Source: Nanobdellota archaeon (GTDB lineage Archaea; Nanobdellota; Nanobdellia; Pacearchaeales; GW2011-AR1). Taken from it: 64,000 bases of DNA. A program made the translations under genes and the position numbers. This document shows, piece by piece, positions 5,040-20,427 of the stretch. Under the pieces are notes generated by a model. It made no database searches. It was not told the origin of the DNA and saw nothing but the letters and a program-made list of their open reading frames with translations. The stretch's first letter is position 1; the number at the start of each line of letters is the position of its first letter. Location: positions 26,660 through 90,659 of the forward strand of contig JAGWGZ010000001.1 in the NCBI GenBank assembly GCA_028867075.1. Direction: 5' to 3'.

Positions 5040-5051
5040 GAATTTGCATTA

Positions 5052-5384: not shown

Positions 5385-5437
5385 ACACTATATCAGAGTT
5401 AAAAAATCTTTATAAAGTTTAACACTCTTTTTAGCTT

Positions 5438-6730: not shown

Positions 6731-6778
6731 TTTTTGTGGCATAACAATTCTTAAAAACATCTGGATTTTTTTAGAAAA

Positions 6779-7333
6779 ATGATAACGTACAATGAGATTT
6801 ATGAATCTGCCAGGAAGGAGAGATATTCCGAGCAACTGCAACCCCTGCCGAAAAATTTCATTGCAAGCGTTGCCGAGTATCTGAAAGAAAAGAAAGAGAT
6901 GTCTATGAAAGAAGACGATTCCTTTTCAGATATGATAACAAAAACAAAAAAACAGTTTGAAAATGCCGTAACTTTGTTTAATGAACTAAAAAGAATAAGA
7001 AGAAGAAAAATCCTGAATCTGGTTCTTGTTGCGTCTGAGACCGGAATTTCAAAAAGGGATTTTGAGAACATGCTTGATTTTGAAAAAGAGCTATTTGAAG
7101 AACTGATGAAATGCATTGAAGCGTCAGACAAGAAATTTAACGGGTTGCTTAACGGAGCGAAAAATGAAGTGATGAAGAATGAGATGGTTATGTTCCGGGA
7201 TGATGTTGAAGAATTTCTCGGGCCTGACGGGGAAATGATGGGCGGGTTTATGAAAGGGCAGATTGCAAATCTTCCGCACCAGATTGCACAGATTTTGATT
7301 GAAGACGGAAAGGCGGAGAAAGTTGAAGAATAA
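6779..7333 (+). CDS. GINS subunit (Gins51-like)
   Basis: N-terminal LQPLPKNF A-domain-like segment; C-terminal FLGPDGEMMGGFMKGQIANLPHQIAQILIEDGKAEKV resembles the Gins51 B-domain. Confidence 0.5.
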   Translation: MITYNEIYESARKERYSEQLQPLPKNFIASVAEYLKEKKEMSMKEDDSFSDMITKTKKQFENAVTLFNELKRIRRRKILNLVLVASETGISKRDFENMLDFEKELFEELMKCIEASDKKFNGLLNGAKNEVMKNEMVMFRDDVEEFLGPDGEMMGGFMKGQIANLPHQIAQILIEDGKAEKVEE

Positions 7334-7363
7334 GTTTAAATTCTAAGCAATTGTTATAACTAA

Positions 7364-7891
7364 ATGAAAAGCCTTTCAAGAATAATCACGGGGGTTTTAC
7401 TTGCTTTGGCCGGAATCGGGTTAGTCTTATTCTCCATTTTAACACAGGCAAATTATTATTCTGTTGTTCTCGGCTCTTTTTTTCTATTGTTTGGAATTAT
7501 AATCTTGCTAAACAAGCATGAGGACAAGATTGAAAAAAGCGGAAAAGAAGAGAGTTTGGTTAACGCAAAAAAAGGCATTATTGTGACGACTATGAATGAT
7601 ATCCCCGGAAGGAAAATTCAAAGAGTTTTGGGTATTGTGAGGGGGAATACCGTGAGAAGCAGGAACATTGGAAGAGATATAATGGCCGGTTTCAAGAGCA
7701 TTGTTGGAGGGGAAATAGGAACTTTCACAGAACTGATAAGCCAGTCGCGCGATGAAGCTTACAACAGAATGGTGAACAAGGCAATTGAAATGGGTGCGGA
7801 TGCGATAATCATGATGAGGTTTGATGCTTCTTCTGTGATGAAAAATTCGTCAGAGATTCTGGCTTACGGGACGGCTGTGAAGCTGGGATAA
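7364..7891 (+). CDS. YbjQ/UPF0145-family protein with N-terminal TM segments
   Basis: C-terminal ~100 aa matches the UPF0145 (YbjQ) domain pattern GIVRGNTVRSRNIGRDI...GADAII. Confidence 0.7.
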   Translation: MKSLSRIITGVLLALAGIGLVLFSILTQANYYSVVLGSFFLLFGIIILLNKHEDKIEKSGKEESLVNAKKGIIVTTMNDIPGRKIQRVLGIVRGNTVRSRNIGRDIMAGFKSIVGGEIGTFTELISQSRDEAYNRMVNKAIEMGADAIIMMRFDASSVMKNSSEILAYGTAVKLG

Positions 7892-7892
7892 A

Positions 7893-8468
7893 ATGAAGGG
7901 GATTCAACATTTTTCAATTTCCCTTTTTATTATTCTTGTTATAATCCTATCAGGAGTATTTTTAAAATTCCCGAAATTTTCTTATTTCTCTATTAGCATT
8001 TGGGCTGTTGGACTTTTCTTAATCCTTTTAGGCTCTCTTTTGCCTGACTCCGATAGTGGAAATAAAAAATCTTTAATCTTTGTTTTTTCTAATTCTTCAT
8101 TAAAAAATAATTTTAAATGGGAAGAAAAAGAAATTGTTAAATCGTTTATGGTCTTTTTAGGGGTTCTCTTTTTTCCTATTGCATCTATCACGAATCAATT
8201 GGAGAAACTTTTAAGATTCTACACAAAATTGCCGAGAGGCCATAAACAAACCCTGCATACGATCTTTGGTGTTTTAATAACCTCATTATTTTGGTCTTTA
8301 GTATTTTATTTAATCTTTTTTTGGATAAATCCTTCTAATAATAACTTCTTTATTTTATTGTTTTGGTTTTTATGTTTGCTTTCATCACAGATTTTGCATC
8401 TATTAGAAGATCGGATAGTTGAAAAGCAAGGTTGGAAAATTTCTTGGAAAGGAATGCAAAGCCTCTAG
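7893..8468 (+). CDS. hypothetical polytopic membrane protein
   Basis: ORF with several hydrophobic helices; no recognisable motif. Confidence 0.4.
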   Translation: MKGIQHFSISLFIILVIILSGVFLKFPKFSYFSISIWAVGLFLILLGSLLPDSDSGNKKSLIFVFSNSSLKNNFKWEEKEIVKSFMVFLGVLFFPIASITNQLEKLLRFYTKLPRGHKQTLHTIFGVLITSLFWSLVFYLIFFWINPSNNNFFILLFWFLCLLSSQILHLLEDRIVEKQGWKISWKGMQSL

Positions 8469-8532
8469 AGGGATTTGAACCCCCGACCCCCGGTTTACAA
8501 AACCGATGCTCTAACCACTGAGCTATAGAGGC
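8460..8532 (-). tRNA. tRNA-Thr (anticodon UGU)
   Basis: Reverse complement folds: acceptor GCCTCTA/TAGAGGC plus U73, anticodon loop TTTGTAA, T-arm GGGGG-TTCAAAT-CCCTC. Confidence 0.8.
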
Positions 8533-8640
8533 ATAAGCAAAATCCACGGTTTTTCTTATCAACTTTTCCCCTACGGTGTCTACGGTTTCGTTCGCTTGAC
8601 TTCCCCATAGGGGAGTTTCCCGCAGGCTTAAATTTTAGAG
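8533..8640 (-). promoter_or_regulatory. long structured 5' leader of tRNA-Thr carrying the conserved AAACCGTAG motifs and a CCCCTATGGGG palindrome
   Basis: In RNA orientation it reads GAAACCGTAGACACCGTAGGGG ... AAAAACCGTGG; the related motif recurs upstream of four other minus-strand tRNAs. Confidence 0.45.
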
Positions 8641-8662
8641 AATTGGTTATTTAAAAGATTTC

Positions 8663-9214
8663 TTATTCTACTTTTAGGGGTTTGATAATTTCAAGAACCC
8701 TTATTTCACAAGCTGATAATGGATAGATCTTTTTCAATTTCAGGCTGAGTTCTTTCTGCAGCTGATTTTTCATAAGTTCATCAAATAATGTCTCAGAACT
8801 TTTGTTCTCAAGTTCTGTTATCATCTCTTCTCTTGCCTTGCTCCTAAGGGCTGTTTTTATTGAGTTGTGGACTTTTCTCCTTGTTATCATGAATAGCTTG
8901 ACTTTCAATTCAGAATCTTTGCATTTTGCCGTAAATGAATCCTCAACATAGTCTGTTCCTCTTCGCACGAGCCTGCCGAGCGATGAATGTACTATTTCCA
9001 TTTTTTTGGGAAATGCTGTAAACTTGTCTTTCTCTCCTGAAGGCTTAACTTTAAGGTAAAGCAGAATATTCTTTCCTTTCAGGAGCCTTGTCATGTCGTA
9101 TTTTATCGTCTTCCCCTCAAGTTCTTCAGGCTCATAAGCATAAAGCTGCGTTTCTTTTCCTATAATCGGAATTTCAACATCAAAAAATCTTTTTCTTTTT
9201 TTTGCCTGTGCCAT
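8663..9214 (-). CDS. rps3ae: 30S ribosomal protein S3Ae (S1e)
   Basis: Sequence pattern of archaeal S3Ae; probable start at MAQAKKRKRFFDVEIP (9214) rather than the upstream ATG at 9241. Confidence 0.8.
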   Translation of the reverse strand: MAQAKKRKRFFDVEIPIIGKETQLYAYEPEELEGKTIKYDMTRLLKGKNILLYLKVKPSGEKDKFTAFPKKMEIVHSSLGRLVRRGTDYVEDSFTAKCKDSELKVKLFMITRRKVHNSIKTALRSKAREEMITELENKSSETLFDELMKNQLQKELSLKLKKIYPLSACEIRVLEIIKPLKVE

Positions 9215-9988: not shown

Positions 9989-10073
9989 GCGAGGACACCC
10001 ATCGTTTCCTTCGCTTAATCTTCCTTTAAAAGATTATAAAAATATTTAAATATGAAGCGCATTTAAATCTATC

Positions 10074-10265
10074 ATGGCAAGGTTAAAAGGGCTGATGTTT
10101 CTTCTTTATCTGATTTTTGGATTGTATTTTATAAACTATTCACTCAACTTAATTACTCTTCCAGGCTTTTTTTCAAGCATAGACCAATGGATAATCCTCG
10201 TCGGCGGACTGCTGATAATTCTCGGCGGGATCAACCAGATGGGATTGAACAAATTTGCCCCGTAA
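10074..10265 (+). CDS. small two-TM membrane protein (first gene of giant-protein locus)
   Basis: 63 aa, two hydrophobic helices; TATA-like AT-rich promoter upstream at 10030-10060. Confidence 0.35.
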   Translation: MARLKGLMFLLYLIFGLYFINYSLNLITLPGFFSSIDQWIILVGGLLIILGGINQMGLNKFAP

Positions 10266-10305
10266 TCACACTAAGATTTATATATCTCTTTCTCATCATT
10301 TTCCC

Positions 10306-12213
10306 ATGAAGCCGGAGGTGACTTATAGAAGGAATTTTGCTTCAAAAAGAGCTCATTCACACTTATTTTGCAGTTTTTTTCTGAAAAATCGCAGAGGCCA
10401 GGTTACGCTTTTTGTCATTCTTGCAATAATAATCCTTGCAGCTGTCGCAGGATTCTTGATTTATAAGAGTACCTTGCCGCCGGTTGTCCAGATTCCATCG
10501 GAGTTTCAGCCGATTTACAATACTTTCCTTTCATGCGTTCAAAGCACAACCCTTTCCGGGATAAGCATTCTTGAAAGTCAAGGGGGTTATATCTATCTTC
10601 CTGCATTTCAGCAGGGCTCCTCGTACATGCCGTTTTCATCGCAGCTTAATTTTTTGGGGAACCCGATTCCTTATTGGTATTACGTCTCAGGAAATAATAT
10701 AGCGACACAACAAGTTCCGTCCGAATCCGGAATGGAAGCGCAGCTCGCGCAGTTTATTAACCAGAATATAAGAAACTGCAATCTCGCACAGTATACTGAT
10801 GAAGGATATGTTGTTCAGATGGGTCAGCCAAGTGCAAGCGTCAGCATAAAATCAGATACTGTTGATGTGAATCTTGCAATGAACATGAACATCAGTAAGG
10901 GGAACTCAAGCATTTTTGTAAGCAACCACAATTCAAATGTGAACTCCGAACTCGGAAACTTATACTCTGATGCGCAGACAGTTTACCAATATGAACAATC
11001 AAATATGTTCCTTGAAAATTATACTCTTGATACAATCAGAAATTATGCTCCTGTCGACGGGGTTGACATAAAATGTTCCCCCGAAGTTTGGAATGCTTAT
11101 GGCATTGTCGCAAACCTAAGCCAGGCAATCCAGGACAATATAATGTCCCTTCATACAGGGAATAATGCAACGGATTATTTTTCATTGAAGATTCCTGTTC
11201 AGAATGTGAGATTTTTGACTTCTTCAGGTTGGCCAAGCGATTATGAAATTAATCCCTCTGAAGGAAGCCTGCTTGTTGCACAGCCGATAGGAAATCAGCA
11301 GGGACTGGGCTTATTGGGATTCTGTTATGTTCCTTATCATTTTGTATATGATGTAAAATACCCGGTCCTTGTGACTTTGCAAAGAGGAAGTGAAATTTTC
11401 CAATTCCCGTTTGCCGTCGTTATTCAGGGAAATGAGCCGCGGACATCTCTTGTTGGAAATGCGACATCTGTTTCAGCCCCTGTGCTCTGCCAGAATGAGA
11501 ATACAAATATGACTGTAAGCGTCCAGGATTCAAATTCAAATCCGGTAGATGCGAATATTTCCTACGAGTGTTTCGGAGAAACATGCAGCATCGGGGAGAC
11601 CAGATCAGGGAGCATTAATGCTCTTTTCCCCCAATGCGTCAATGGTTATGTCCTTGCCTCTGCCCCAGGATTTGTAACCGGGAAATATCAGCTCACAACC
11701 ACACAATCAGGAAGCATTTCTGTTGTGCTGAATAAGTTGTATAACGAATCTGTTGATTTGCAGATTGACGGAAAGGAATATACCGGAAACATGGCTCTTA
11801 TTACCTTCACATCTTCGGATGGAAGTTCGCAGACAATTAATTATCCCGCTCAAAAGAGCATAGGCCTGAGCGAGGGAGATTACACAATACAGGTTTCTGC
11901 TTATGATAACTCTTCAATAAATCTCGGCGCGACTACCGGACAGCAATGCATTAATGTAGCCGGGAATGCAGTGGAAGGAGCTTTGGGCGTGACACAGCAG
12001 CAGTGTTTTAGTGTAAATGTTCCAAGCCAGGTAATATCAAGCGCTCTTTCGGGAGGAGGACAAGCAGAGACTTATATCTTTGAATCAGACCTCCAGAATT
12101 CAAACACGATCAGGATAAATGCCCAATCTCTCCCTGCACCGACAACCATAGCACAACTCCAGAATAATTATGTTCTGCTTGAAAATAAAACAGTATCGGT
12201 AAATTTTGCATAA
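10306..12213 (+). CDS. secreted/anchored N/Q/S/T-rich surface protein (about 635 aa)
   Basis: ATG at 10306; the track's 10255 start is a TTG overlapping the upstream ORF. N-terminal TM/signal anchor VTLFVILAIIILAAVAGFLIY; composition similar to the downstream giant protein. Confidence 0.6.
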   Translation: MKPEVTYRRNFASKRAHSHLFCSFFLKNRRGQVTLFVILAIIILAAVAGFLIYKSTLPPVVQIPSEFQPIYNTFLSCVQSTTLSGISILESQGGYIYLPAFQQGSSYMPFSSQLNFLGNPIPYWYYVSGNNIATQQVPSESGMEAQLAQFINQNIRNCNLAQYTDEGYVVQMGQPSASVSIKSDTVDVNLAMNMNISKGNSSIFVSNHNSNVNSELGNLYSDAQTVYQYEQSNMFLENYTLDTIRNYAPVDGVDIKCSPEVWNAYGIVANLSQAIQDNIMSLHTGNNATDYFSLKIPVQNVRFLTSSGWPSDYEINPSEGSLLVAQPIGNQQGLGLLGFCYVPYHFVYDVKYPVLVTLQRGSEIFQFPFAVVIQGNEPRTSLVGNATSVSAPVLCQNENTNMTVSVQDSNSNPVDANISYECFGETCSIGETRSGSINALFPQCVNGYVLASAPGFVTGKYQLTTTQSGSISVVLNKLYNESVDLQIDGKEYTGNMALITFTSSDGSSQTINYPAQKSIGLSEGDYTIQVSAYDNSSINLGATTGQQCINVAGNAVEGALGVTQQQCFSVNVPSQVISSALSGGGQAETYIFESDLQNSNTIRINAQSLPAPTTIAQLQNNYVLLENKTVSVNFA

Positions 12214-15200
12214 ATGAAAAATAAAATGATGCTGAGAATTGAAATTTTATTAGTGGTAGCTGCTGCACTCTCACTCATATTGTTTGCAAATCCTGTTCTT
12301 GCATTCTCTGATTCAACTTTTCAGACCTCTGCATTTAACAATCTTATTTCTCCAACCGCAAGTTCTGGTTTTGACAATTCAATGTGCCAACAAGGGCAGG
12401 ATTTTATCCTTCAGATCTCTCCGACAGGATGCATGCCTGCAGTTGTAAGGAGCGATTTGCTTGAACAGCAGGATGTTCCCGTAATGTGCCCTATTGTAGC
12501 GACGCAGATAAATCCCCTGATAAGCGTAAATTCAATACAGGGAATGACTATTTCTGTTTCAGGAAATGCTTCCCGGTATGTCAATACTGCCGGATTTTAT
12601 CCTGCACAGGCAGCTCTTAACTTGCAGGGGCAGCAGAACACATATCCCCTCCTGAGCAATGTAGGATATGCTGTTATAGACCTGAAGCAGATGCCGAACG
12701 AATCTTCAATGCCTGACTTTGTATCAGGAAATCTGACAGCGACGATAAATTACAATGCGCAGAACATTTTTGGGGGAAATTCCAATTTTTACATTCCTGT
12801 AATGTCTGATTCTGACTGGCAGAATAATTATCCGGATTATAATTTCTGGAATAGTAAAGGCTATCTGAGAGTGACCAGCATACAAAATGACAATGCAAAC
12901 ATAAATGTTTACGGGACAAATCTGAATCAGCTTTCAAGCCTTAATCTCAAGACAGGCCAGACATCAGGCAACATTGCCATTCCTGGATTTGACTTTTGTT
13001 CTGCAACAATGCAGATTAAACTGAACAGTTTGCAGAATGCAAACACAATGGCTAATCTTGAAGTGAACGGGAATCCAGTTACTGTTGAAAAAGGCGGGCA
13101 GTTTATCGATAACAACTGTCAGGTTTCAAACATTTATCAGCAGGGGCTTTCTCAGGATGTGCAGATAGGATGCAATACTGATTCTGGAAATAAAAATTTT
13201 GACCTGAGGGTTGCACCGAAATTAGTCATGAATATTAATGGGCAGACAAGAACAGTCGGCCTTGGCGATTATCTGTACACCATTCCGGGCGATCCTAACG
13301 CAATAACAGACGCGGGAAAATCAGTTTTCCTTGCTTATATCGGAAGCAATAACACGAAAGGCGATCTGAACGGATTGTATGTTTACCTTGTTGCACTCCC
13401 AAAAAATGCGTTGCAGAGTGAGAGCTCTCTTACTAACGATGAGCTTTCTTCAATAGCAAGCTGGGTTCAACATGAAAATCTGGACTTCAAGGTAGGAATG
13501 AGTGGAATTTTGAGCGGCCTGCTTGATGTTGGGAAAGTTTTTGCCGGAACTACTGAATCGATTCTGAGGTATATTATCTCAGGGCAGGATCTTGCTCTTT
13601 TGCCTTATAATCCTTCAATGATAGCATCCAATCAGAATATTCCTCCCTTTCAGCAGGGCGCGGAACAGAGCGTGAGTATTGTGAGTTTTGCAGCAGGAAG
13701 CGATATGCTCCTTCAATCTCCTGTGAATCAATATTACCAGAATGCAACAAAAGATTATCAGGCAATACAAAATAATTACAAAACAGAAACATATTCTTCT
13801 GCAGGAACAGCAACTCTTGGAGAACAAGCCCTATATCAGCAAATGTCTCTTGCTTATAATCTTGGAGAGAAATATACGCTGAATACTCTTTGCAATCAGT
13901 TTGAGCAGCAATACCCGAAATCAACTTATGATACAAGCTTCTGCAGCGGTTTGCAGATTTCAAGCCAAACATCAGCAAGCCAGTTGATTTCCATAAATGG
14001 GCAATCATACCAGATAAATCTTAAAAGCGTTTATACTCCGACGTACAATGATTATGGGGCACAGATTCTTGTTAAGTATAAGGACGGGAGTTCAAAACAA
14101 TTTGATTTGGGTCAGAATGAGATGCAAACCATAAATGATACCTCCGGAGAATTTATGCAACTTGTTTCACTCACTCCAACCACAGCAACAGTTTCCGGGA
14201 ATATAAAAGCGTTCTCTTCCAATACTGTGACTCTGACAGAGAATGTTCCTGCAGTGTTCGGTAATTATGTGCTTACATTACAGAACGTGAATCTCAAACA
14301 ATTTGCAGACATCTCTGTTATTTCAAATCTTAACACTGCCGGCGCCAGGGCAAATGTTTCATTCAATATCAGCATTGAAAAAAGGCTGATACAGCTAAAT
14401 CCGGACAAGGTAAAACAGCAGATTTCAGATCTTAATTCAACAATTTCAACATGGGAGAGCATTGCGAACACGACCGGCACGGTTGTCCAGGCATTGGGAA
14501 CAGTTTGCCAGGATGTTGGAATAGGTCTGACTGTAAAAAATCTTCTTACAAATCTTTTCACAATGACGGGAACTGCAAGACAGATCGTGATGACTGGCGC
14601 GGGGGGATGGAACTCAAAATGCCAGACCCTCATTAATAACGGAAAATATTCCACTCTTGACCAGTGTTTTAATGACAATTCAAAGCAGATAGACTCCGAT
14701 GTAAGTCAGATGAGCCAATTCATGCAGAGCCAGAATGCAGGGATACAGAATCTGCAAAAAGATTATACGCAGCCTGCAAGCAACATTGTCGGGCAGGTTT
14801 TCCAGGGAAGCACAGTCAATACAGACAAGTTCATGAGCAGTTATCTTCCGCAGATTCAGTCATGTCTTGCTAATATGGGAACGGTTGCAAGCTCCTCAGA
14901 CTCAAGCAAGACAATAACATCTTCTCAGGCGCAGAACCTATTGATTTACCAGTATTATACAAATAATTTCTTCAGCCTTTCTGACGCGCGAAATGTTGAA
15001 TTGTACTGCAACATACTGAATTCTAATGACGCAAGCACTTCATTGAAGGCAATAGCACAACAAGGGATGTATTCAACACTTTCTGGAATCCAGCAAAATT
15101 CAAACACTTTCCAGCAACAACAGACTATTGCAGCAAAGCTAAATGTTCCAAGCAGTGTTGTTTTCACGGGCTCTCTGCAGCAGAATTCCAGGCCGATATC

Positions 15201-18200
15201 AATAACAGCCCCACAATCTTTTGGAACAAGTCCGTTTACAAACACAAATCTAAATGGTTTACCAGCCGGTTCTCATTGCGACTCCAATCCCCAATGCCAG
15301 AGCGGAGATTGCGATCCAACATTGAAGGTCTGCATTGGTAATCCTTCAATCGATCCAAGCAGTTATTACTTCATTTACAATGATCAGAGCAGTAGCAATT
15401 CATACCTGGTTGATTATAACGCAGATGGAATTGTTCAGGGAACTTATCTTATTAACACTGCAAGCAATACCCTTTCTCAGATAACAGATGCAAAAGGAAA
15501 TATTCAGAAGAATTATTTTAATTTTGCCATCAAGATTTATTCTGCGGGGAGCTACCAGAATGAATACAAGAACCCGACTGTCCAATATTTTGAAACCTCG
15601 CCATATCAGGGAATGCCTGCAATTGTTCCGTTTGATTTGAAGAACGGGTGGTATGCTGCTGTCCGGCAGGTTCTTCCGACAGGAGGGAATAGCGCGACAC
15701 AGTCATATACAGCGGCAGGACAAGTGCAAAGTTTCTATTTATGCAATGTCGGCCCAAACGGGTTGGAAGATGGAATAAACAACGGAGATGATATTTGCGA
15801 GGGAATAAATCTCGGAACAAACCAGCCATACAATCAGTTCCCCGGAATTACCGATCCGAACCAGGCTTCACAGTTGGTTAACAGTGCAGAGTCTGCCATA
15901 AAACAGGCTGCACAGGCAAGGGCAAACAATCCAAGCGGTTTGACTTATGTCACTATAAATAATCAGAGAATAAAAGTAGGTGCACCCGCAACTTCCACAC
16001 CGCAGATACAGTGCACTGATTTCATGTCTCCGACTGATTGCAACATCCTCTTCAATGCCTGCGACCCTGTTGTCTGTCCCGCAAGCAGATGCGACTTCGG
16101 TGGAGCTTATCATGTTCAGGATGTTGTGCAAAGCGGAATAATAGGAAGCATTGCTTTGTGCCTTCCGAATTATAAAGAAGGAATCGCAGTGCCCGTCTGC
16201 CTTACAGGAATCCAGGCAGGTGTGGAGAATATAATTTCGTACCAAAAAGCATACAGAGATTGCCTTCAGAATAATCTTAACACGGGACAAACGACAGGAA
16301 TCTGCAATGAGATATTAAGTATTTATCTTTGCCAGGATTTGTGGCAGCAGGCGCAACCTCTTGCAAATCTCGCAGTCTCAAAAGTTACGCAGACTGTTTT
16401 AGGGCAGAATAATGCCGGCGGGGGAGAATATATGTCTGTACAAAATGCTTACAATACTGCGCAGCAATCGTTCAACTATATCACTAATTACTATGCTTCC
16501 AGTTCTTCAAAGTCTTTCAGCAGTCTGTCAACACAGAATCTAGGGGCGACTGTCTGCCAGAATTTCCCATCAATCGTATTTCCGAACAGCGCAAACATGC
16601 TCACGCAGCTTTCAGCTATTGATTCTCCACCTCAGTTTTCAGGAAATTTCCAGGAGATTCCTTTCTCAAGCGCGACTGTCCCACCGACTTCGCAATACCA
16701 AGTTTATTATCACATCTATGCGGGGCAGAACTCAGGTGCTTATTACAGTGTTTATTTGCAAAGATCTTCTGGAAGCGGAAGCTCTTACTATCAGGATACT
16801 TCTGCTATACGGCAGACTGATTCCGGTTATATTGACACCGGCAGTTACCAAGACCAGACAAAAGATTTCACGGCGCCTTCCGGATATGACCAGTTGTGCA
16901 TAAATGTCAACGGGCAGGTTGACTGCGGATTCAAGCAGGTGTCAACATCTCTAGTGCCAAATTACATTCAGGCGCAATACCTTGCGGACCAGGCAAATAA
17001 TACACAGATAACAACTGAATCGCAGTGCGTTTCAGGAACAATTGACACTTCAAGTTTGTTACAGGCTTTGAATCCGAATGTCCAGAATGCAGTGCAGAAT
17101 GCTGCAAGCCCGCAACTTTACAATCAGGGAATAACAAGAATCTGCGCTACAGGAAATCCAGGACAGGGAAGCGATCCTTATGCAGGAACGCAGAATTCAC
17201 GATGGATTAAAGTAGGTTCATGCGGAAGCCAGAATCTTTCATGCTGGCTTGATACACAAAGCGTTAAGAATGCCATTAATGCTCCGGACTTAGCGTCTTA
17301 TCTTGCAAACGGAACAACGCAAAATCTGGGAAATGCAACGTTGCAAAGCCTGCAGTCCAGTTATCTTTCTGTTCTATTGAGCCAAAGCGGATATTTGAGC
17401 AATGACCAGTTTACAAGCAGTATACAGGATATTCAGTCGCAGACAGATTTAACGCAGAAAATAAACACAATAAATAATGTAATAAATAAAGTGTTCTATA
17501 ATAATCAGAAAGCATATCTGCTTTTCCTTAGGGGACTGGCTTATGGACAGCTGGCTCTGAAATCTTATTCAGCAAGTATTCCGGCCAGTGGTGCAGGCCA
17601 ATTTACAAGTTATCAGGATTGCATGTCTAAGATTGCAAGCAACTCTGTCTGCAGTGCAATGTTCCCTGTTTCTTCTGGACAGGGGAATTCACAGGGGGCT
17701 CCAACAGGAACGCTCCTGCCTGTTGGTTCTGCTTGCACAAAGGATTCTGATTGCCAGAGCGGGAGTTGTGTTGACACCGGAGATGCAACACTTGGAAAGA
17801 GATGCGCCGCTTCAACAAACATTCCCAACGGGGTTACTCTCTCAAGCCTTTCAAATGCAATGTCTTCACCGGAACTTAACTGTCAGTGCGGAAATAACTG
17901 CGAGCAGTATGCGCAATCCTTAATCAATGCCGCAAACACATATCATGTTAATCTTGTTCTCTTGCTTTCAATCATGGTCCAAGAATCTCATTGCAATGTT
18001 AATGCACAAACTTCTCCTGATTCTTCAGGATATTCTTCAATTGGATTAATGCAAATTTATAACAGCCCAAGTAACCTTCAGCAATATTGCGTTGGAAAAA
18101 TAAGCGGGATAAGCAGTGCAAGTGATATAACCGGTGCTGTAAATTATGATAAGAACATCCAGTGTGGCGCTTCTGTCTTGAAGAGCAAATATGCAGAGAG

Positions 18201-20250
18201 GCCTGCTCCGCAAACCTATACCTGTGATGGTGTCACAAAAACTTATTCAACTCCTTCTGATGCGGCCGTAAGAGGGTACATTGGATACGGGTGCACAAAT
18301 AATCCAAGCATAGACGTCCCGAGTTATGTTGATGATGTTAATCAGAGGTATAATCTCATAATGAGCATAATAAATCCGCAGCAGAGTACAGCAACGGCAT
18401 TGTATCAGACAGCTGCATATTCCCCTGATTTTGTTTCCCCCGTATTTAATTATAATAGTCTTTATTATGAATTTTCAGGAGGAACCTGGCAGTGGTCAAA
18501 TGATGGAAAAAAGTGGAATAATCTTGTGAACTCAGGAAGTTTAAGCGGAAGCAATTCAGTCATTGTCCAAAATTTAAATGGTAGATCATATGAGCAAGGA
18601 TTAAAAATATTAATTGATAGCGAACTTTCAAGTACTGGTGTTAAGGTCCCACTTATAAATTTGGCTCTCCCTATAGGTTATCCAATGCTTTCAACCCAAT
18701 ATGTTTCAATGGATCATAATGGACAGTTTAATTTCCTTTATTCCAAAGATAGAAGTTTCCCATTTTATTTCAAATTCTTAAATGGTAAGTGGATGTGGGA
18801 GACTAGTTCTAATTTAAATGGATGGATGGACACCAGTATCTCAAGCACAACTGTTGAGAGCGCGGGTGCCCCCCCAATGCTGACAAGTTTCTTAAGTAAT
18901 CTTGACCTTTACCAAGGTGCAGAAGCTTTGTTCAACAGCGGAGGAGATGATACTATCCCTGTTTCAGTTCCAACCTCCGCTTTTGATTATACCCCTTCCC
19001 TTCCTTCAACACCCATAACACCAAGTTCACAAACCCAAACCTCTTCAACAGCCCAGACACCTTCGACGTCTTCTATATCCCAATCACAGATATCCTCAGA
19101 TGATATAGGTTCTTATAACAATTTTGCATCTTTATTTAGTCAGTATTCACAGTCTAATCTTCCAAATGTGGTGATTGCACCTGCTCCAGGGAAATCTTTT
19201 TCTTCTGAAAGCGTTACAGGTCCAAGTACAAACGATATTTATTGGACGCAAAATGATTTTGAGGCTTTATTGATTTCAATTGCGCAGCAAAATGAATGGG
19301 GGCAGTTTGACACAAGTGGCAGCTGGTTGATGGGATATAGAGCTGGAAATCCTCACTATCAAACTGCAGATATCCAGATACGGGCCACCTCACTTATTTT
19401 AGAATCAGCAATACAAGGGGAAGGTAATTCTCTTGCGGACCAAGCAGGAAAGATTGTATCTTATGACTCTTGCAAACAATATTATAGAGTTGATACCACC
19501 AAGCAAATTTCATGCATATTGAGTATTTATCACACTGGAAGTTATTATACAGGGTTTTGGTTTACCGGAATAGGTGCAAATAAAGACGGAAACAATTATG
19601 CATCAAATGTCCTTGGAAACTGGACGTTATGGAAAAATTACCTAAGTTTGCAGCAAGGATCATCATCACAAACTCCCTCTTCTTCTAGTTCATCTGCAAA
19701 TTTAAATCCCACTTCTGCTCTTCCAGTCTCTCAATATAGTCCTTTCTCTGGCGTTTTTGCAAATTATGCGCAGGTTAATCTCCCTAATTCTGTTCTTGTG
19801 CCTGGTTCAATAATTGGTCCAAGTTCTAATGATGTCTATTGGAGTCAGAATGATTTCAAAGCTCTACTGGTAGCAATTGCGCAAATGAATAATTTTGGAA
19901 TTAATAGTAATGGTGATGGTATGATGGGTTATAGTCTGAGTTCTAGTTCAAGCCTTGATAAATATAATCAAATTAACATCGTCTCTTCAGCTTTAAAATC
20001 CGCAATTGAAGGAACAGGAAGTTCGCAGCCAGACCAAGCAGGGAATCTTGTTTCATATAATACCTGTAATCAATATTATAGAATAAATATGAATAATCAA
20101 CTGACATGTATCTTAAATATCTATAAGACGGGAATGAGTTCTGACAGCAGCGGGGTAGCTTATGCAAATAACGTCTTGAGTCTCGCAAAGATATGGGATG
20201 ATTACTTTAGCAGTAGTGGATCTAGTAATCTCGACCAACTTGCACTATAA
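12214..20250 (+). CDS. giant (2678 aa) secreted N/Q/S/T-rich surface protein with Cys-rich modules and an SLT/lytic-transglycosylase-like domain
   Basis: Signal peptide MKNKMMLRIEILLVVAAALSLILFANPVLA. Repeated C..(S/D)..CQSG.C motifs. Segment VQESHC...GYSSIGLMQIYN matches the E-S...GLMQ catalytic signature of the SLT lysozyme-like fold. C-terminal ~170-aa tandem duplication. Confidence 0.8.
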   Translation: MKNKMMLRIEILLVVAAALSLILFANPVLAFSDSTFQTSAFNNLISPTASSGFDNSMCQQGQDFILQISPTGCMPAVVRSDLLEQQDVPVMCPIVATQINPLISVNSIQGMTISVSGNASRYVNTAGFYPAQAALNLQGQQNTYPLLSNVGYAVIDLKQMPNESSMPDFVSGNLTATINYNAQNIFGGNSNFYIPVMSDSDWQNNYPDYNFWNSKGYLRVTSIQNDNANINVYGTNLNQLSSLNLKTGQTSGNIAIPGFDFCSATMQIKLNSLQNANTMANLEVNGNPVTVEKGGQFIDNNCQVSNIYQQGLSQDVQIGCNTDSGNKNFDLRVAPKLVMNINGQTRTVGLGDYLYTIPGDPNAITDAGKSVFLAYIGSNNTKGDLNGLYVYLVALPKNALQSESSLTNDELSSIASWVQHENLDFKVGMSGILSGLLDVGKVFAGTTESILRYIISGQDLALLPYNPSMIASNQNIPPFQQGAEQSVSIVSFAAGSDMLLQSPVNQYYQNATKDYQAIQNNYKTETYSSAGTATLGEQALYQQMSLAYNLGEKYTLNTLCNQFEQQYPKSTYDTSFCSGLQISSQTSASQLISINGQSYQINLKSVYTPTYNDYGAQILVKYKDGSSKQFDLGQNEMQTINDTSGEFMQLVSLTPTTATVSGNIKAFSSNTVTLTENVPAVFGNYVLTLQNVNLKQFADISVISNLNTAGARANVSFNISIEKRLIQLNPDKVKQQISDLNSTISTWESIANTTGTVVQALGTVCQDVGIGLTVKNLLTNLFTMTGTARQIVMTGAGGWNSKCQTLINNGKYSTLDQCFNDNSKQIDSDVSQMSQFMQSQNAGIQNLQKDYTQPASNIVGQVFQGSTVNTDKFMSSYLPQIQSCLANMGTVASSSDSSKTITSSQAQNLLIYQYYTNNFFSLSDARNVELYCNILNSNDASTSLKAIAQQGMYSTLSGIQQNSNTFQQQQTIAAKLNVPSSVVFTGSLQQNSRPISITAPQSFGTSPFTNTNLNGLPAGSHCDSNPQCQSGDCDPTLKVCIGNPSIDPSSYYFIYNDQSSSNSYLVDYNADGIVQGTYLINTASNTLSQITDAKGNIQKNYFNFAIKIYSAGSYQNEYKNPTVQYFETSPYQGMPAIVPFDLKNGWYAAVRQVLPTGGNSATQSYTAAGQVQSFYLCNVGPNGLEDGINNGDDICEGINLGTNQPYNQFPGITDPNQASQLVNSAESAIKQAAQARANNPSGLTYVTINNQRIKVGAPATSTPQIQCTDFMSPTDCNILFNACDPVVCPASRCDFGGAYHVQDVVQSGIIGSIALCLPNYKEGIAVPVCLTGIQAGVENIISYQKAYRDCLQNNLNTGQTTGICNEILSIYLCQDLWQQAQPLANLAVSKVTQTVLGQNNAGGGEYMSVQNAYNTAQQSFNYITNYYASSSSKSFSSLSTQNLGATVCQNFPSIVFPNSANMLTQLSAIDSPPQFSGNFQEIPFSSATVPPTSQYQVYYHIYAGQNSGAYYSVYLQRSSGSGSSYYQDTSAIRQTDSGYIDTGSYQDQTKDFTAPSGYDQLCINVNGQVDCGFKQVSTSLVPNYIQAQYLADQANNTQITTESQCVSGTIDTSSLLQALNPNVQNAVQNAASPQLYNQGITRICATGNPGQGSDPYAGTQNSRWIKVGSCGSQNLSCWLDTQSVKNAINAPDLASYLANGTTQNLGNATLQSLQSSYLSVLLSQSGYLSNDQFTSSIQDIQSQTDLTQKINTINNVINKVFYNNQKAYLLFLRGLAYGQLALKSYSASIPASGAGQFTSYQDCMSKIASNSVCSAMFPVSSGQGNSQGAPTGTLLPVGSACTKDSDCQSGSCVDTGDATLGKRCAASTNIPNGVTLSSLSNAMSSPELNCQCGNNCEQYAQSLINAANTYHVNLVLLLSIMVQESHCNVNAQTSPDSSGYSSIGLMQIYNSPSNLQQYCVGKISGISSASDITGAVNYDKNIQCGASVLKSKYAERPAPQTYTCDGVTKTYSTPSDAAVRGYIGYGCTNNPSIDVPSYVDDVNQRYNLIMSIINPQQSTATALYQTAAYSPDFVSPVFNYNSLYYEFSGGTWQWSNDGKKWNNLVNSGSLSGSNSVIVQNLNGRSYEQGLKILIDSELSSTGVKVPLINLALPIGYPMLSTQYVSMDHNGQFNFLYSKDRSFPFYFKFLNGKWMWETSSNLNGWMDTSISSTTVESAGAPPMLTSFLSNLDLYQGAEALFNSGGDDTIPVSVPTSAFDYTPSLPSTPITPSSQTQTSSTAQTPSTSSISQSQISSDDIGSYNNFASLFSQYSQSNLPNVVIAPAPGKSFSSESVTGPSTNDIYWTQNDFEALLISIAQQNEWGQFDTSGSWLMGYRAGNPHYQTADIQIRATSLILESAIQGEGNSLADQAGKIVSYDSCKQYYRVDTTKQISCILSIYHTGSYYTGFWFTGIGANKDGNNYASNVLGNWTLWKNYLSLQQGSSSQTPSSSSSSANLNPTSALPVSQYSPFSGVFANYAQVNLPNSVLVPGSIIGPSSNDVYWSQNDFKALLVAIAQMNNFGINSNGDGMMGYSLSSSSSLDKYNQINIVSSALKSAIEGTGSSQPDQAGNLVSYNTCNQYYRINMNNQLTCILNIYKTGMSSDSSGVAYANNVLSLAKIWDDYFSSSGSSNLDQLAL

Positions 20251-20256
20251 TTCTAA

Positions 20257-20427
20257 TGCCCCCGACAGGATTTGAACCTGCGACCCTTAGCTTTCTCCTT
20301 TTGCACGCGGAGGTGCGGAACCGTTTGGGTTCTGTTGCAACTTCCTGTTGGGATGCAGGAGGTGCGGAAACCCGCAGGTGGTTCTGGTTAGAAGGCTAAT
20401 GCTCTATCCAGGCTGAGCTACAGGGGC
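20257..20427 (-). tRNA. tRNA-Arg (anticodon UCU) with a ~96-nt intron after position 37
   Basis: Exons 20389-20427 and 20257-20292 fold into acceptor GCCCCTG/CGGGGGC plus A73, D-arm GCTC/GAGC, anticodon stem TTAGC/GCTAA with loop CTTCTA|A, T-arm GCAGG-TTCAAAT-CCTGT. The intron (20293-20388) interrupts at canonical 37/38. Confidence 0.65.
20293..20388 (-). other. tRNA-Arg(UCU) intron
   Basis: Intervening sequence ACCAGAACCACCTGCGGGTTTCCGCACCTCC...GGTTCCGCACCTCCGCGTGCAAAAGGAGAA with an internal direct repeat TTCCGCACCTCC. Confidence 0.55.

Follow-up and report, generated by a model that had tools for sequence, protein, structure and literature searches.

Organisation of the Locus

Three open reading frames (ORFs) lie head-to-tail on one strand of the window, i.e., the whole stretch of 64,000 nucleotides analysed here, which belongs to a 98,858-bp Nanoarchaeota MAG contig, and the GenBank calls agree with all three (Table 1). 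As described in an earlier note on this DNA, the TAA stop codon of the middle gene (12211-12213) is immediately followed by the in-frame ATG of the giant gene (12214), with a gap of 0 nt, and the giant gene takes up 8037 of the 64000 bases, i.e., 12.6% of the window, close to the 12.5% put forward there. For the middle gene, the mechanical ORF list begins at a TTG (10255) upstream of the ATG at 10306; as the tool queries for its product began at 10303, residue numbers in tool outputs are shifted by +1. TATA-box-like elements were read by eye in front of both the small and the middle gene, and the spacing of the first implies a putatively leaderless or near-leaderless transcript of the small gene.

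On the 3' side, a tRNA-Arg gene, with an anticodon loop reading CTTCTAA in the sequence, is convergent with the giant gene and does abut its stop codon, at a distance of 6 nt; it contains an intron. ARAGORN missed this gene and Rfam recovered it. It is the boundary of the cassette and stands outside the cassette itself. At the orthologous position of another locus (L001), there is a tRNA-Arg(tct) with a short intron. The archaeal origin of the window, from a small-genome DPANN-type organism as anticipated, is confirmed by TFIIB, Gins51, rpS3Ae, and GatD/E.

Table 1. Features of the three-gene cassette and its borders (window positions; a slash within a signal sequence marks the predicted cleavage site)
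Feature	Position	Strand	Description	Basis
TATA-box-like element	10045..10052	+	TTTAAATA; centre ~26 nt 5' of small-gene ATG	by-eye consensus, no statistics
Small gene, membrane hairpin protein	10074..10265	+	63 aa; two hydrophobic segments, TM1 LYLIFGLYFINY, TM2 WIILVGGLLIILGGINQ	GenBank MDE1848456.1; hydropathy
Second TATA-box-like element	10277..10284	+	TTTATATA; ~26 nt 5' of ATG 10306	by eye only
Middle gene	10306..12213	+	635 aa counted from ATG	GenBank MDE1848457.1, 'hypothetical'
Class III (prepilin-like) signal-peptide look-alike	10390..10464	+	N-R-R-G / Q-V-T-L-F-V-I-L-A-I-I-I-L-A-A-V-A-G-F-L-I-Y	
Membrane-proximal alpha/beta domain	10480..11472	+	aa ~59-389; most conserved motifs of the 635-aa protein	
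Tandem transthyretin-like/CnaB-like beta-sandwich domains	11485..12210	+	aa ~394-635; stalk-like region	
Giant gene	12214..20250	+	2678 aa	GenBank MDE1848458.1
Sec-type signal peptide of giant protein	12214..12303	+	MKNKMMLRIEILLVVAAALSLILFANPVLA / FS; sole hydrophobic segment of the protein	
Conserved scaffold	12304..17583	+	aa 31-1790; ~1760 aa, 26 invariant cysteines	
4-Cys knot 1	15277..15333	+	aa 1022-1040, CDSNPQCQSGDCDPTLKVC; poorly conserved scaffold part	regex
Most conserved block	15979..16623	+	aa 1256-1470	top density of invariant columns
4-Cys knot 2	17734..17805	+	aa 1841-1864, CTKDSDCQSGSCVDTGDATLGKRC; linker preceding enzyme domain	regex on translation
GH23/SLT lytic transglycosylase domain	17809..18366	+	aa 1866-2051	Pfam PF01464
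Two W modules	18343..18990	+	aa 2044-2152 and 2147-2259; YYEFSGGTWQW / FYFKFLNGKWMW	
Tandem duplicated X module	19138..20214	+	aa 2309-2479 and 2516-2667	copies 40% identical, E=2e-47
tRNA-Arg(TCT)	20257..20427	-	171 nt, intron ~99 nt	Rfam RF00005, 50.7 bits

The Two Upstream Proteins

The small protein indeed exhibits the two transmembrane segments (TMs) attributed to it, with a K/R-rich N-terminus, a short outer loop (..ITLPGFF..) between them and a basic C-terminus, and an N-in/C-in topology is predicted. Conserved motifs are visible in an alignment of 58 orthologues, and zero matches were returned from Pfam, NCBIfam and PHROG.

Homologues of the 635-aa protein, 606-641 aa long and 50-67% identical across 96% of the length, number at least 1816, and all of them are devoid of Pfam domains. 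Its AF2 model has a mean pLDDT of 83. Near its N-terminus, the 635-aa protein displays a site resembling a class III (prepilin-like) signal peptide, of which the +1 Gln is residue 32 (codon from 10399). Among 119 family members, position -1 is occupied by G (104), A (13) or S (2), and positions -2/-3 mostly by K/R, +1 Gln and +5 Phe are each present in 119/119, and ~22 hydrophobic residues come next. The pilin sites processed by EppA, namely KGQV, KGQI and RAQI, agree with this site (PMC4371748); among the Pfam and NCBIfam models, none for pilins or class III signal peptides matched the protein. Shorter paralogues of 187-272 aa have the same KRGQVTIFIIIAI N-terminus. The alpha/beta domain, harbouring the motifs GNPIPYWYYVSGNN, APVDGV, GFCYVPYHFVY and FQFPxAVVIQGN, has no PDB match.

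The Giant Protein: Secretion and Scaffold

In line with the signal peptide ascribed to the giant protein, an N-terminal hydrophobic segment is found here and in 54 of 56 orthologues, with a cleavage site probably located after an AXA-like VLA; none of the 56 exhibits a C-terminal TM or any other membrane anchor. BLAST covers the scaffold in 113-119 of 119 homologues but the tail after aa ~1790 in only 10-23 of 119. Dozens of scaffold residues are invariant, including the 26 cysteines, and the Cys-rich modules noticed earlier are indeed present. With aa 1101-1800 as query, the representative clusters matched numbered 1072 at E<=1e-3 and 916 at E<=1e-30; no PDB relative of the scaffold was found, nor, in 24 members, a consistent Pfam match. 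The most conserved block is Cys-rich, with short hydrophobic stretches (SGIIGSIALCLP and GIAVPVCLTGIQAGV) and a GGGEY motif; it is helical in AF2, but at a pLDDT of only 26-45, and has no structural match.

N-glycosylation sequons are strongly avoided by the giant protein, with 15 N-X-S/T against 49±6 expected, i.e., a 3-fold depletion. As for the Asn/Gln/Ser/Thr-rich stretches, their reading as low complexity does not hold: in alignments with orthologues they fall in conserved regions, and charged residues of these domains have been replaced in a lineage-specific manner.

The Giant Protein: A Variable Tail

The length of the tail ranges from 122 to 1250 aa among orthologues. The SLT domain of the window matches Pfam PF01464 at 27.2 bits (cut-off 21.3; E=3e-6; aa 1904-1995), with an intact catalytic Glu1924-Ser1925, GLMQ at 1944-1947 and RGYIGYG from 2020. 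Of the enzymatic-looking core previously surmised, the enzyme is thus retained but not its position, which is in the variable C-terminal third. The family profile matches MltC (E=6e-7), the T3SS lytic transglycosylase EtgA (5e-6), MltE, g-type lysozyme and Slt70, with ES and GLMQ aligned, and a weak NCBIfam match to IagB was obtained; the window domain itself is divergent, a single-sequence search finding no PDB relative.

The W module is the commonest tail module (92/176 family members by iterated HMM, mostly in 2 copies) and has no Pfam match. The X module, present in 35/176 members, matches nothing in Pfam or PDB, and its motif ALL(I/V)(S/A)IAQ..N..G ... (L/M)MGY resembles the ES/GLMQ of SLT, with Glu-Ser changed here into N-E and N-N; its hhalign comparison with the SLT region is weak (E=0.011, probability 3.8%) and colinear over 105 columns.

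Across the family, an SLT-like domain occurs in 76/176 members, the other 100 having no recognisable one. The domains met in the tails of orthologues are SLT, matrixin plus SLT, glucosaminidase, Trypsin_2, DUF1615, TPM, PT-HINT, ankyrin or LRR, along with M23 in the precomputed Pfam column, and many lack any known domain. As judged from these domain matches, peptidoglycan hydrolases predominate among the tail modules, and the enzyme appears as a swappable C-terminal module on a fixed scaffold. With no recognisable SLT in 100/176 members and no known domain in many tails, cleaving peptidoglycan cannot be what the scaffold is conserved for.

Conservation and Genomic Context

Orthologues of the giant gene were found in 79 of 80 species-representative loci, directly 3' of the middle gene; 77 of these 79 are in a single frame, and 56 are complete and uninterrupted, with a length of 1774-3243 aa. 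The stop and start codons of the middle and giant genes overlap as ATGA in 32/78 loci and are within 2 nt in 49/78, and the two genes are translationally coupled. The small gene is present upstream of the middle gene in 48/72 loci (tblastn). The cassette is chromosomal, with one copy per fetched locus; one locus (L056) exhibits an additional mini-cassette, encoding a 238-aa version of the partner and a 1025-aa secreted protein.

Housekeeping genes recur on both sides, namely SRP54, FtsY, apgM, Gins51 and rpS3Ae on the one, and RNase Z, LSm, rpS8e and TFIIB on the other, with a tRNA-Val(gac) immediately upstream of the cassette in 36/64 loci. The middle protein is encoded in at least 305 species genomes of GTDB, almost all of them bearing Woese-, Pace- or Nanoarchaeota names, and by no viral contig. 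Relative to the window, the middle protein has a median identity of 49.6% and the C-terminal half of the scaffold one of 47.7%; the identity of the giant protein to its orthologues (~48%) is on par with that of RNase Z from the same loci. The cassette is vertically inherited, core and clade-wide in Woesearchaeota/Pacearchaeota-type Nanoarchaeota. The possibility that the 8-kb ORF is a relic without function or was wrongly joined during assembly, raised by its origin from a metagenome-assembled genome, is negligible and rejected for practical purposes, given the intact orthologues in 56 independent assemblies, the single frame in 77/79, the 916 clusters at E<=1e-30 and the invariant residues including 26 Cys.

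Comparison with Known Systems

The locus had been treated as a novelty, but the family of the giant protein is already published. In Pacearchaeota and Woesearchaeota, a family of large extracellular lytic transglycosylases was proposed to bind or degrade bacterial walls (Castelle 2021, fam00969; PMC8204110), and the same hypothesis was put forward for a "large lytic murein transglycosylase" of the same lineage (Vigneron 2022, PMC9723730), such giants, according to the citations in PMC8204110, having already been noted in Rinke 2013 and Castelle 2015. Sharing the lineage, the size class (reaching ~3000 aa), the extracellular location predicted for it, the SLT/GH23 domain and the proposed role, the giant protein of the window is almost certainly a member of this family. 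As far as found, the published family is defined by SLT alone, whereas SLT is here optional on a scaffold without Pfam match. In the literature found on the family, no mention was met of the three-gene cassette, the prepilin-like partner, the core-genome synteny or the sequon avoidance; what is new here is apparently the two fixed partner genes, one of them pilus-subunit-like, and the swappable enzyme end.

By sequence, the catalytic domain falls into one family with EtgA (EPEC T3SS) and IagB, which are specialised for envelope-spanning machines, and with the housekeeping family-1 enzymes MltC, MltE and Slt70; EtgA/IagB-type enzymes offer a functional parallel, as they open murein locally for a larger apparatus. 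These are, however, bacterial proteins of ~150-350 aa cutting the wall of their own producer, whereas SLT is here embedded in an archaeal protein of 2678 aa. Since the producer archaeon has no murein, the target of the SLT domain must be foreign.

The SPEARE proteins of Nanohaloarchaeota (Hamm et al. 2019, PMC6642349) are likewise giant, mostly extracytoplasmic, multi-domain proteins from DPANN; encoded by an episymbiont and proposed to act in host contact or penetration, they combine hydrolase and adhesion modules (PMC6642349). They differ by their size (3300-8500 aa), their own TM anchor, a cytoplasmic restriction-endonuclease domain and archaeal hosts as targets, and have proteomic support (PMC6642349), whereas the window giant is known from sequence alone; no sequence relation between the two was detected.

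Interpretation and Alternative Readings

The reading we favour, with a probability of roughly 0.55, is that the cassette builds a cell-surface platform acting on bacterial cell walls. The published family hypothesis (PMC8204110), the Sec signal, the coupled anchored partner and the hydrolase tails concur with the host or substrate attachment suggested in the earlier note, though attachment itself is something we infer. Points that weigh against this reading are the 100/176 members showing no SLT, the divergence of the SLT domain of the window, and, for the partner, the Phe at +5, the negative outcome with pilin models and the absence of a prepilin peptidase, PilB and PilC among the 40 window proteins scanned.

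A structural envelope layer, in which a two-component, S-layer-like coat of the SlaA/SlaB kind would have the giant protein as its outer canopy, the 635-aa protein as its membrane stalk and the C-terminal enzymes as mere decorations, seems improbable. Archaeal S-layer proteins are typically heavily N-glycosylated and usually fast-diverging, and many invariant cysteines are unusual in them, whereas the giant protein is sequon-depleted, carries 26 invariant cysteines and evolves as slowly as its RNase Z neighbour. Compared with SlaA/SlaB of Sulfolobales (PDB 8qox), there is no sequence homology, the tails are enzymatic and swappable, and the anchor has opposite polarity, i.e., an N-terminal prepilin-like helix instead of the C-terminal TM helix plus coiled coil of SlaB. 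Profile searches of PDB sequences, SlaA and SlaB included, gave nothing, the SlaB match reaching generic beta-sandwich level only.

Release of the giant protein as a soluble agent, either a polymorphic-toxin-like antibacterial effector or a murein-degrading nutrient scavenger, with export or maturation of the giant as the sole role of the upstream genes, is likewise unlikely. The cleavable-looking Sec signal and the lack of an anchor would fit such release, and polymorphic toxins and the Omnitrophota "Archaeovorins" are likewise built as a conserved trunk with variable C-terminal enzymatic modules, where SLT is occasional and attack on the wall of another cell was proposed (bioRxiv 10.1101/2023.11.21.568195); bacteria-killing archaeal peptidoglycan hydrolases have also been shown elsewhere (PMC12352652). 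Archaeovorins, however, exceed 10,000 aa, the window giant being much smaller, and the cassette is syntenic rather than hypervariable. Neither Rhs, filamentous-haemagglutinin nor any known trunk type is present, and no immunity-like gene lies 3' of the giant gene, where the convergent tRNA-Arg and then RNase Z are found. A pre-toxin HINT domain occurs in one orthologue (P0086) but in only 1/120 homologues, and ankyrin, LRR and W-module tails resemble binding modules rather than toxins. Besides, for a small genome, a conserved scaffold of 1760 aa would be a costly way to carry an enzyme that simply diffuses, and the strict coupling to a membrane-anchored, stalk-like partner favours surface retention.

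It is quite doubtful that the 635-aa protein is a minor or tip pilin and the giant protein a tip adhesin/effector of a type IV filament, making distant contact and pulling cells together by retraction. The invariant prepilin-like motif with its +1 Gln and unusually conserved N-terminal helix would suit a pilin, as would the 187-272 aa paralogues, expected of a pilin set, and the second mini-cassette of L056. The partner resembles EppA-processed EpdB/EpdC of Methanococcus in its [KR][GAS]/Q-V-T site (KGQV), +1 Gln and hydrophobic helix (PMC4371748). It has, however, Phe rather than Glu at +5, the Pfam and NCBIfam pilin models do not match it, and its 580-aa globular part is far above typical pilin size. 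Among 40 window proteins scanned against Pfam (7 ORFs of at least 110 aa lying outside the scan), there is no prepilin peptidase, pilus ATPase (PilB) or platform protein (PilC), nor are these found beside the cassette in related loci. Moreover, a class III signal peptide alone implies no pilus, as illustrated by the Sulfolobus bindosome, the subunits of which are, like the partner, several times pilin size (PMC4371748). The partner differs from these in being no substrate-binding protein, with a globular part lacking a PDB match and a processing that is only predicted, and BasEF, PilBC and EppA genes are not nearby.

Proposed Role of the Cassette

For a surface platform acting on bacterial walls, the following course can be proposed. 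The giant protein would be exported by Sec, lose its signal peptide and fold outside the cell with disulfides. The 635-aa partner would be processed by a prepilin peptidase and either stay in the membrane by its pilin-like helix or be displayed by a type IV filament machinery, like the bindosome proteins of Sulfolobus; as suggested by co-occurrence and coupling, it would bind the giant protein non-covalently and thus keep it at the surface. The hairpin protein may aid anchoring or assembly of the complex. The distal tail would touch the bacterial cell, where SLT may locally cut the MurNAc-GlcNAc backbone of peptidoglycan and thus breach the wall, whether to attach, to feed or to kill; as archaea are without murein, no immunity protein would be needed.

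Gene organisation and genomic setting

The locus comprises three genes in tandem, which encode (i) a 63-aa protein with two transmembrane (TM) segments, referred to as the hairpin protein, (ii) a 635-aa partner, and (iii) a giant secreted protein. Every feature that the earlier note had claimed for it was recovered from the ORF list, by translation and in GenBank, where the same three proteins are annotated on a 98,858-bp contig of a Nanoarchaeota MAG. The partner and giant genes adjoin as had been described, the TAA at 12211-12213 directly abutting the ATG at 12214 in the same frame. Read-through of this single TAA, giving a partner-giant fusion, was considered and rejected: most orthologous pairs overlap by ATGA and lie in different frames, which makes read-through unlikely as a conserved feature. 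A start codon nearer the RGQ motif of the partner was also sought; the codon there is CTG and the ATG at 10306 was retained. Partner residue numbers taken from tool outputs are one too high, the query having started at 10303 instead of 10306.

Features of the three-gene cassette and of the giant protein
Feature	Position	Strand	Length	Annotation or remark
Small ORF (hairpin protein)	10074-10265	+	63 aa	ORF list; GenBank MDE1848456.1 'hypothetical'
Middle ORF (partner)	10255-12213 (TTG start) or 10306-12213 (first ATG)	+	635 aa (first ATG)	MDE1848457.1 'hypothetical'
Giant ORF	12214-20250	+	2678 aa	MDE1848458.1 'transglycosylase SLT domain-containing protein'
4-Cys knot 1	giant aa 1022-1040			C-x5-C-x4-C-x6-11-C pattern
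4-Cys knot 2	giant aa 1841-1864			C-x5-C-x4-C-x6-11-C pattern
SLT domain	giant aa 1866-2051			
Two W modules	giant aa 2044-2152, 2147-2259			
Ser/Thr/Pro linker	giant tail, between W and X modules			
Two X modules	giant aa 2309-2479, 2516-2667			Copies 40% identical, E=2e-47

The tRNA-Arg announced beside the stop codon of the giant is indeed present, as a convergent 171-nt tRNA gene delineated by Rfam at 20257-20427 (-), 6 nt past the stop, with an anticodon loop CTTCTAA corresponding to tRNA-Arg(TCT) and an intron of ~99 nt; ARAGORN in bacterial mode reported no tRNA at this place, though Rfam finds one. The intron is unusually long and contains an internal near-repeat, ccgcacctcc occurring twice, and the orthologous tRNA in one relative locus (L001, 15820-15913) has a short intron only. 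The window is a piece of archaeal chromosome, its proteins including TFIIB, Gins51, rpS3Ae, SRP54/FtsY, GatD/GatE and many aminoacyl-tRNA synthetases. A group of four genes, located at 52452-53819 (-), 54141-55448 (+), 56817-58262 (+) and 60726-62087 (+) and listed here by position and not by product, includes those for GatD and a GatE-like protein as well as for a GatA-type amidase and a GatB-like protein separate from GatE, from which components of both the archaeal GatDE and the bacterial-type GatAB(C) transamidation pathways seem to be present. A 266-aa Fic/DOC-family protein is encoded between gatD and the gatE-like gene, at 55986-56786 (+).

Conservation and inheritance of the cassette

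Scanning one genome per GTDB species, relatives of the partner were found in at least 305 genomes, a lower bound since the scan used only two narrow peptide patterns; by name, nearly all of these genomes are Woesearchaeota, Pacearchaeota, Nanoarchaeota or Nanoarchaeia. The giant comes directly after the partner in 79 of the 80 species-representative loci kept. An ATGA overlap joins the stop of the partner to the start of the giant in 32 of 78 loci, and in 49 of 78 the two are no more than 2 nt apart, while the hairpin gene is found upstream of the partner in 48 of 72 and a tRNA-Val(gac) directly upstream of the cassette in 36 of 64. The window and three distant genomes share the neighbourhood SRP54-FtsY-apgM-Gins51-...-rpS3Ae, cassette, RNase Z, LSm, rpS8e, TFIIB, and no relatives of the cassette were found in viral contigs. 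Median identities to the window proteins over the same loci are 49.6% for the partner, 47.7% for the C-terminal half of the giant's scaffold (aa 1061-1790) and 34.6% for its N-terminal half (aa 31-1060), to be set against 56.5% for rpS3Ae and 89.8% for TFIIB; the slow evolution of the partner and of the scaffold core is thus comparable to that of some housekeeping proteins. The cassette is a fixed and vertically inherited part of the core genome. A mobile island inserted between tRNAs can be rejected, as the same tRNAs and housekeeping neighbours recur in distant genomes and viral relatives are lacking.

Two cassette-bearing contigs, L011 (DATJPO010000003.1) and L042 (DATKUW010000047.1), belong to MAGs that bear the names Omnitrophota bacterium and Bacillota bacterium, respectively. 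This is most likely due to binning contamination; it may also be that the contigs were co-binned with a bacterial partner to which the archaea are physically attached or whose abundance they share.

The giant protein as a secreted scaffold

The giant family is sharply bounded, without a halo of remote relatives. A word-indexed search returned 234 homologues, a count that is probably too low, almost all of 1900-3000 aa and stemming from Nanoarchaeota, Pacearchaeota and 'archaeon' MAGs. By exhaustive phmmer of giant aa 1101-1800 against 1.84 billion representatives, 1072 clusters were obtained at E<=1e-3, 1022 at E<=1e-10 and still 916 at E<=1e-30, with lengths of up to 3779 aa. The scaffold gene is present in 79 of the 80 loci and the 56 complete orthologous ORFs span 1774-3243 aa (median 2236). 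As for frameshifts or assembly artefacts, which the earlier note had named as what could undo the giant ORF, the orthologues are single-frame in 77 of the 79 loci; the ORF is real and the artefact reading is excluded.

The sole strongly hydrophobic segment of the giant is its N-terminal signal (aa 11-29, ...NPVLA|FS); such an N-terminal segment occurs in 54 of the 56 complete orthologues and a C-terminal TM helix in none of them. BLAST coverage by 119 homologues is nearly complete over aa ~50-1790 and then falls to only 10-23 of the 119, whereby the giant divides into a conserved scaffold and a variable tail. The scaffold holds 26 invariant cysteines, and its conservation peaks at aa 1256-1470 (...QCxDFMSPxDCNxLFNxCDPVxCPxSRCDFGG...GGGEY). 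The giant is, in short, a Sec-secreted protein without anchor, made of a disulfide-rich scaffold and exchangeable tails.

Within the giant, the SLT (GH23 lytic transglycosylase) domain was recognised, and the scaffold proved to have no Pfam or PDB relative. Apart from SLT, sequence searches with the giant and the partner (PDB by phmmer and hmmsearch, NCBIfam, PHROGs) returned nothing, the scaffold remaining without match among PDB sequences both in phmmer with the giant and in hmmsearch with a scaffold profile, as well as in NCBIfam and PHROGs; no consistent scaffold family emerged from Pfam when 24 giant family members were scanned singly. An AF2 model of aa 1060-1880, built on a 37-sequence alignment, is mediocre (mean pLDDT 61), with three confident parts, i.e., a beta-rich region (aa 1060-1260), a beta-sandwich (aa ~1471-1590) and a small beta unit with a helical bundle (aa ~1640-1790), while the block of peak conservation is predicted helical at a pLDDT of just 26-45. 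Searched against the PDB with Foldseek, this model gave nothing below E=1e-3, only weak generic Ig-like sandwiches.

The SLT domain and the modular tail

PF01464 (SLT) matches giant aa 1904-1995 with 27.2 bits against a cut-off of 21.3 (E=3e-6), the best E-value in the family being 5e-21. The catalytic-type ES motif (E1924-S1925) is invariant in 14 of 14 aligned family SLT domains and aligns to the ES of MltC; GLMQ (G1944-Q1947) is likewise invariant in the family alignment. A third motif, RGY(N/I)G(Y/W)G in the family and RGYIGYG from residue 2020 in the window, was called by eye as a variant of the downstream aromatic/Gly motif of GH23/SLT enzymes, which we take to be AYNxG-like. By single-sequence phmmer, the SLT segment found no solved relative in the PDB. 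A profile of the 14 family domains matched the solved structures of MltC (E=6e-7 and 2.4e-6), of the T3SS-associated EtgA (5e-6) and, further, of MltE (9e-4), goose-type lysozyme (1e-3) and Slt70 (5e-3), with Glu-Ser and GLMQ aligned. A lysozyme-like fold is thereby likely, and, from these profile matches and the intact ES and GLMQ, the domain carries the sequence features that mark active family-1 lytic transglycosylases. Pseudomurein, with its beta-1,3 linkages, would not be expected as a substrate; since the producing archaea have no murein, the substrate should be bacterial.

Post-scaffold tails measure 122-1250 aa in the orthologues. On ten of them, Pfam recognised DUF1615, TPM, Trypsin_2, ankyrin repeats, PT-HINT, matrixin plus SLT, and LRR, together with a glucosaminidase slightly below its cut-off (29.8 vs 30.2 bits); M23 is additionally listed for giant homologues in precomputed Pfam data. 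With iterated HMMs, an SLT-like domain was detected in 76 of 176 family members, W in 92 (usually as two copies) and X in 35, so that SLT, from which both GenBank and the literature take the family's name, is an optional part of the tail. The X motif, ALLVAIAQx(E/Q/N)(S/T/N)..G...WLMGY, resembles the ES...GLMQ pattern of SLT, and E-S or E-T is kept in several orthologues, the two window copies reading N-E and N-N. The idea that X is a degenerate SLT lacks statistical backing: comparing X and SLT by hhalign gave E=0.011 at a probability of 3.8%, and X showed no BLAST similarity to SLT and no Pfam or PDB match.

Sequon depletion and residue composition

The giant contains 15 N-X-S/T sequons, compared with 49±6 in shuffled sequences (z=-5.6), and its tail a single one where 16.6 are expected. 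The partner (11 vs 9.8 expected) and the other 45 window proteins together (76 vs 77.9) do not depart from expectation in this way, and all 39 giant homologues tested are depleted, mostly 2-6-fold. Avoidance of AglB-dependent glycosylation would be the obvious idea.

Asn, Gln, Ser and Thr make up 37.9% of the window giant, and Lys, Arg, Asp and Glu 10.6%. The low-complexity character earlier attributed to this N/Q/S/T-rich sequence did not hold, as the richness falls within alignable, conserved regions. Charged residues account for 7.8 to 29% of the orthologues and NQST residues for 19 to 39%, the partner family covering the same range; the richness thus comes from charged residues having been replaced in a lineage- or habitat-specific manner. 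That predicted extracellular proteins are charge-poor and N/Q/S/T-rich suggests a habitat-specific adaptation of the surface proteome, for which an acidic or low-ionic-strength habitat would be a guess. A 290-aa trypsin-like protease encoded elsewhere in the window (51420-52292, -) also contains 10.3% Asn.

The partner and the hairpin protein

At least 1816 homologues of the partner were found, of 606-641 aa and 50-67% identical across 96% of the length, all of them devoid of Pfam domains; scanning 45 partner proteins singly against Pfam gave nothing, and hmmsearch of the partner profile against the PDB gave no match. The AF2 model (119 sequences, mean pLDDT 83) lays out an N-terminal helix, a second helix, an alpha/beta domain (aa ~60-390) and beta-sandwich domains to the C-terminus. 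In all 119 members, the N-terminus reads [KR][KR]-[G/A/S]-Q-V-T-I-F-I-I-I-A followed by ~22 hydrophobic residues; position -1 is G in 104, A in 13 and S in 2, positions -2 and -3 are mostly K or R, and Gln at +1 and Phe at +5 are invariant. Such a sequence follows the pattern of archaeal class III (prepilin-like) signal peptides. A helix as strongly conserved as this one is usual at the N-terminus of pilins and uncommon in plain TM anchors. The pattern matches the sites processed by EppA in Methanococcus pilins, i.e., KGQV, KGQI, KGQL and RAQI, where Gln at +1 is obligatory (PMC4371748), but carries Phe at +5 instead of the Glu of EppA substrates. No pilin or class III signal-peptide family was listed on the partner by Pfam or NCBIfam at E<=0.1 to 1. 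Use of a class III signal for surface display by large non-pilin proteins is exemplified by the Sulfolobus bindosome (PMC4371748). The partner is a membrane-anchored, prepilin-like, stalk-bearing protein and an obligatory companion of the giant. Short proteins of 187-272 aa sharing the KRGQVTIFIIIAI start are encoded in several related loci.

Aligned over 58 loci, the hairpin protein shows a basic N-terminus, YLIFGLYFINY, a short loop with I/L-P-E, WIIxxGGILLIIGGINYFR and a basic C-terminus; it has neither a class III motif nor a database match. It was rejected as a pilin, no G/A being conserved at -1 across the 58 orthologues. In locus L013, it is duplicated in tandem (131 aa). Locus L056 contains a second, smaller cassette of the same design (4942-8985), ~1 kb upstream of the main one and composed of a 61-aa two-TM hairpin, a 238-aa protein that begins, prepilin-like, with the same MKKRGQVTIFIIIAI, and a secreted protein of 1025 aa; L013, L044 and L073 also encode short paralogues with this N-terminus.

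Proposed role and alternatives

In the reading judged most likely, the partner would retain the giant at the cell surface and the giant's tail would engage another cell; in this organism, the SLT domain may open bacterial murein locally, for attachment, feeding or antagonism, and the producer would need no immunity protein. This role agrees with the hypothesis published for the giant family (PMC8204110; PMC9723730). In a bolder reading, at a probability of roughly 30%, the trio would be a hitherto undescribed, clade-defining surface-display machine, in which the giant, with a disulfide-rich scaffold whose fold is new and which avoids N-glycosylation, would be held by the prepilin-like ~600-aa protein and the tiny hairpin, and the exchangeable C-terminal effectors (murein hydrolases, proteases, binding repeats) would set partner specificity.

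Two other readings seem improbable to a similar degree. An S-layer-like structural coat of SlaA/SlaB type would also place a large secreted protein with an anchored companion at the surface, but the giant is sequon-depleted, cysteine-rich and slowly evolving, whereas a canopy of SlaA/SlaB type would be sequon-rich and heavily N-glycosylated; the anchor polarity of the partner argues against it too, and no sequence or profile homology of the cassette proteins to SlaA or SlaB was found. Were the giant instead a released toxin or scavenging enzyme, its conserved trunk with variable C-terminal modules would be that of polymorphic toxins. It is, however, coupled to an anchored partner, some tails in the family are non-enzymatic, and in place of a downstream immunity gene stand the convergent tRNA-Arg and RNase Z, while the pre-toxin domain PT-HINT occurs in one homologue only and is absent from the window. 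Slightly less probable still is a type IV pilus tip complex, a variant of the most likely reading to which the prepilin-like start of the partner would lend itself; no prepilin peptidase, PilB or PilC was present among 40 window proteins scanned against Pfam, nor was a prepilin peptidase or pilus ATPase found beside the cassette in the gene tables of three related genomes. Finally, a phage holin-endolysin cassette (the giant has its own Sec signal, the cassette is kept without SLT and PHROGs gave no match) and a conjugation or T4SS pair of VirB1-like and VirB2-like proteins (no VirB4/VirD4 ATPases, housekeeping chromosomal context) were rejected.

Relation to the published family and significance

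Giant extracellular SLT-domain proteins of 'up to 3,000 aa' were described in Pacearchaeota and Woesearchaeota as fam00969 by Castelle et al. (2021; PMC8204110), following notes by Rinke (2013) and Castelle (2015) cited therein, and were also discussed by Vigneron (2022; PMC9723730) and others. With 2678 aa, a signal peptide, an SLT domain, and homologues and loci from Nanoarchaeota, Pacearchaeota and Woesearchaeota MAGs, the window giant would belong to fam00969, as judged from the published description rather than from member sequences. In the fam00969 texts consulted, we found neither the scaffold/tail dissection, the optional SLT and the fixed three-gene cassette in a housekeeping neighbourhood, nor the prepilin-like partner, the sequon avoidance and the observation that the scaffold core has no structural relative. 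Castelle et al. (PMC8204110) nowhere use the words pili, pilus, pilin or secretion. These additions are a refinement of a known family and of the bacterial-wall hypothesis, not a discovery, and do not establish function. They do render the hypothesis of a host interface easier to test.

Few uncultured archaea are as widespread as Pacearchaeota and Woesearchaeota, and we know of nobody who has established their hosts or their mode of attachment. The cassette is the best genomic candidate for their host interface, being near-universal in the loci examined, conserved like some housekeeping genes, and extracellular, with tails that in many lineages carry enzymes making sense only against bacterial murein. 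Seen as a scaffold whose tails can be exchanged, accompanied by a pilin-like partner and a hairpin, it provides concrete reagents and predictions, and tail type may serve as a predictor of host type. If the surface-display reading is true, the trio would be the long-sought molecular interface with which Pacearchaeota and Woesearchaeota reach across domains to attach themselves to bacteria and exploit them.
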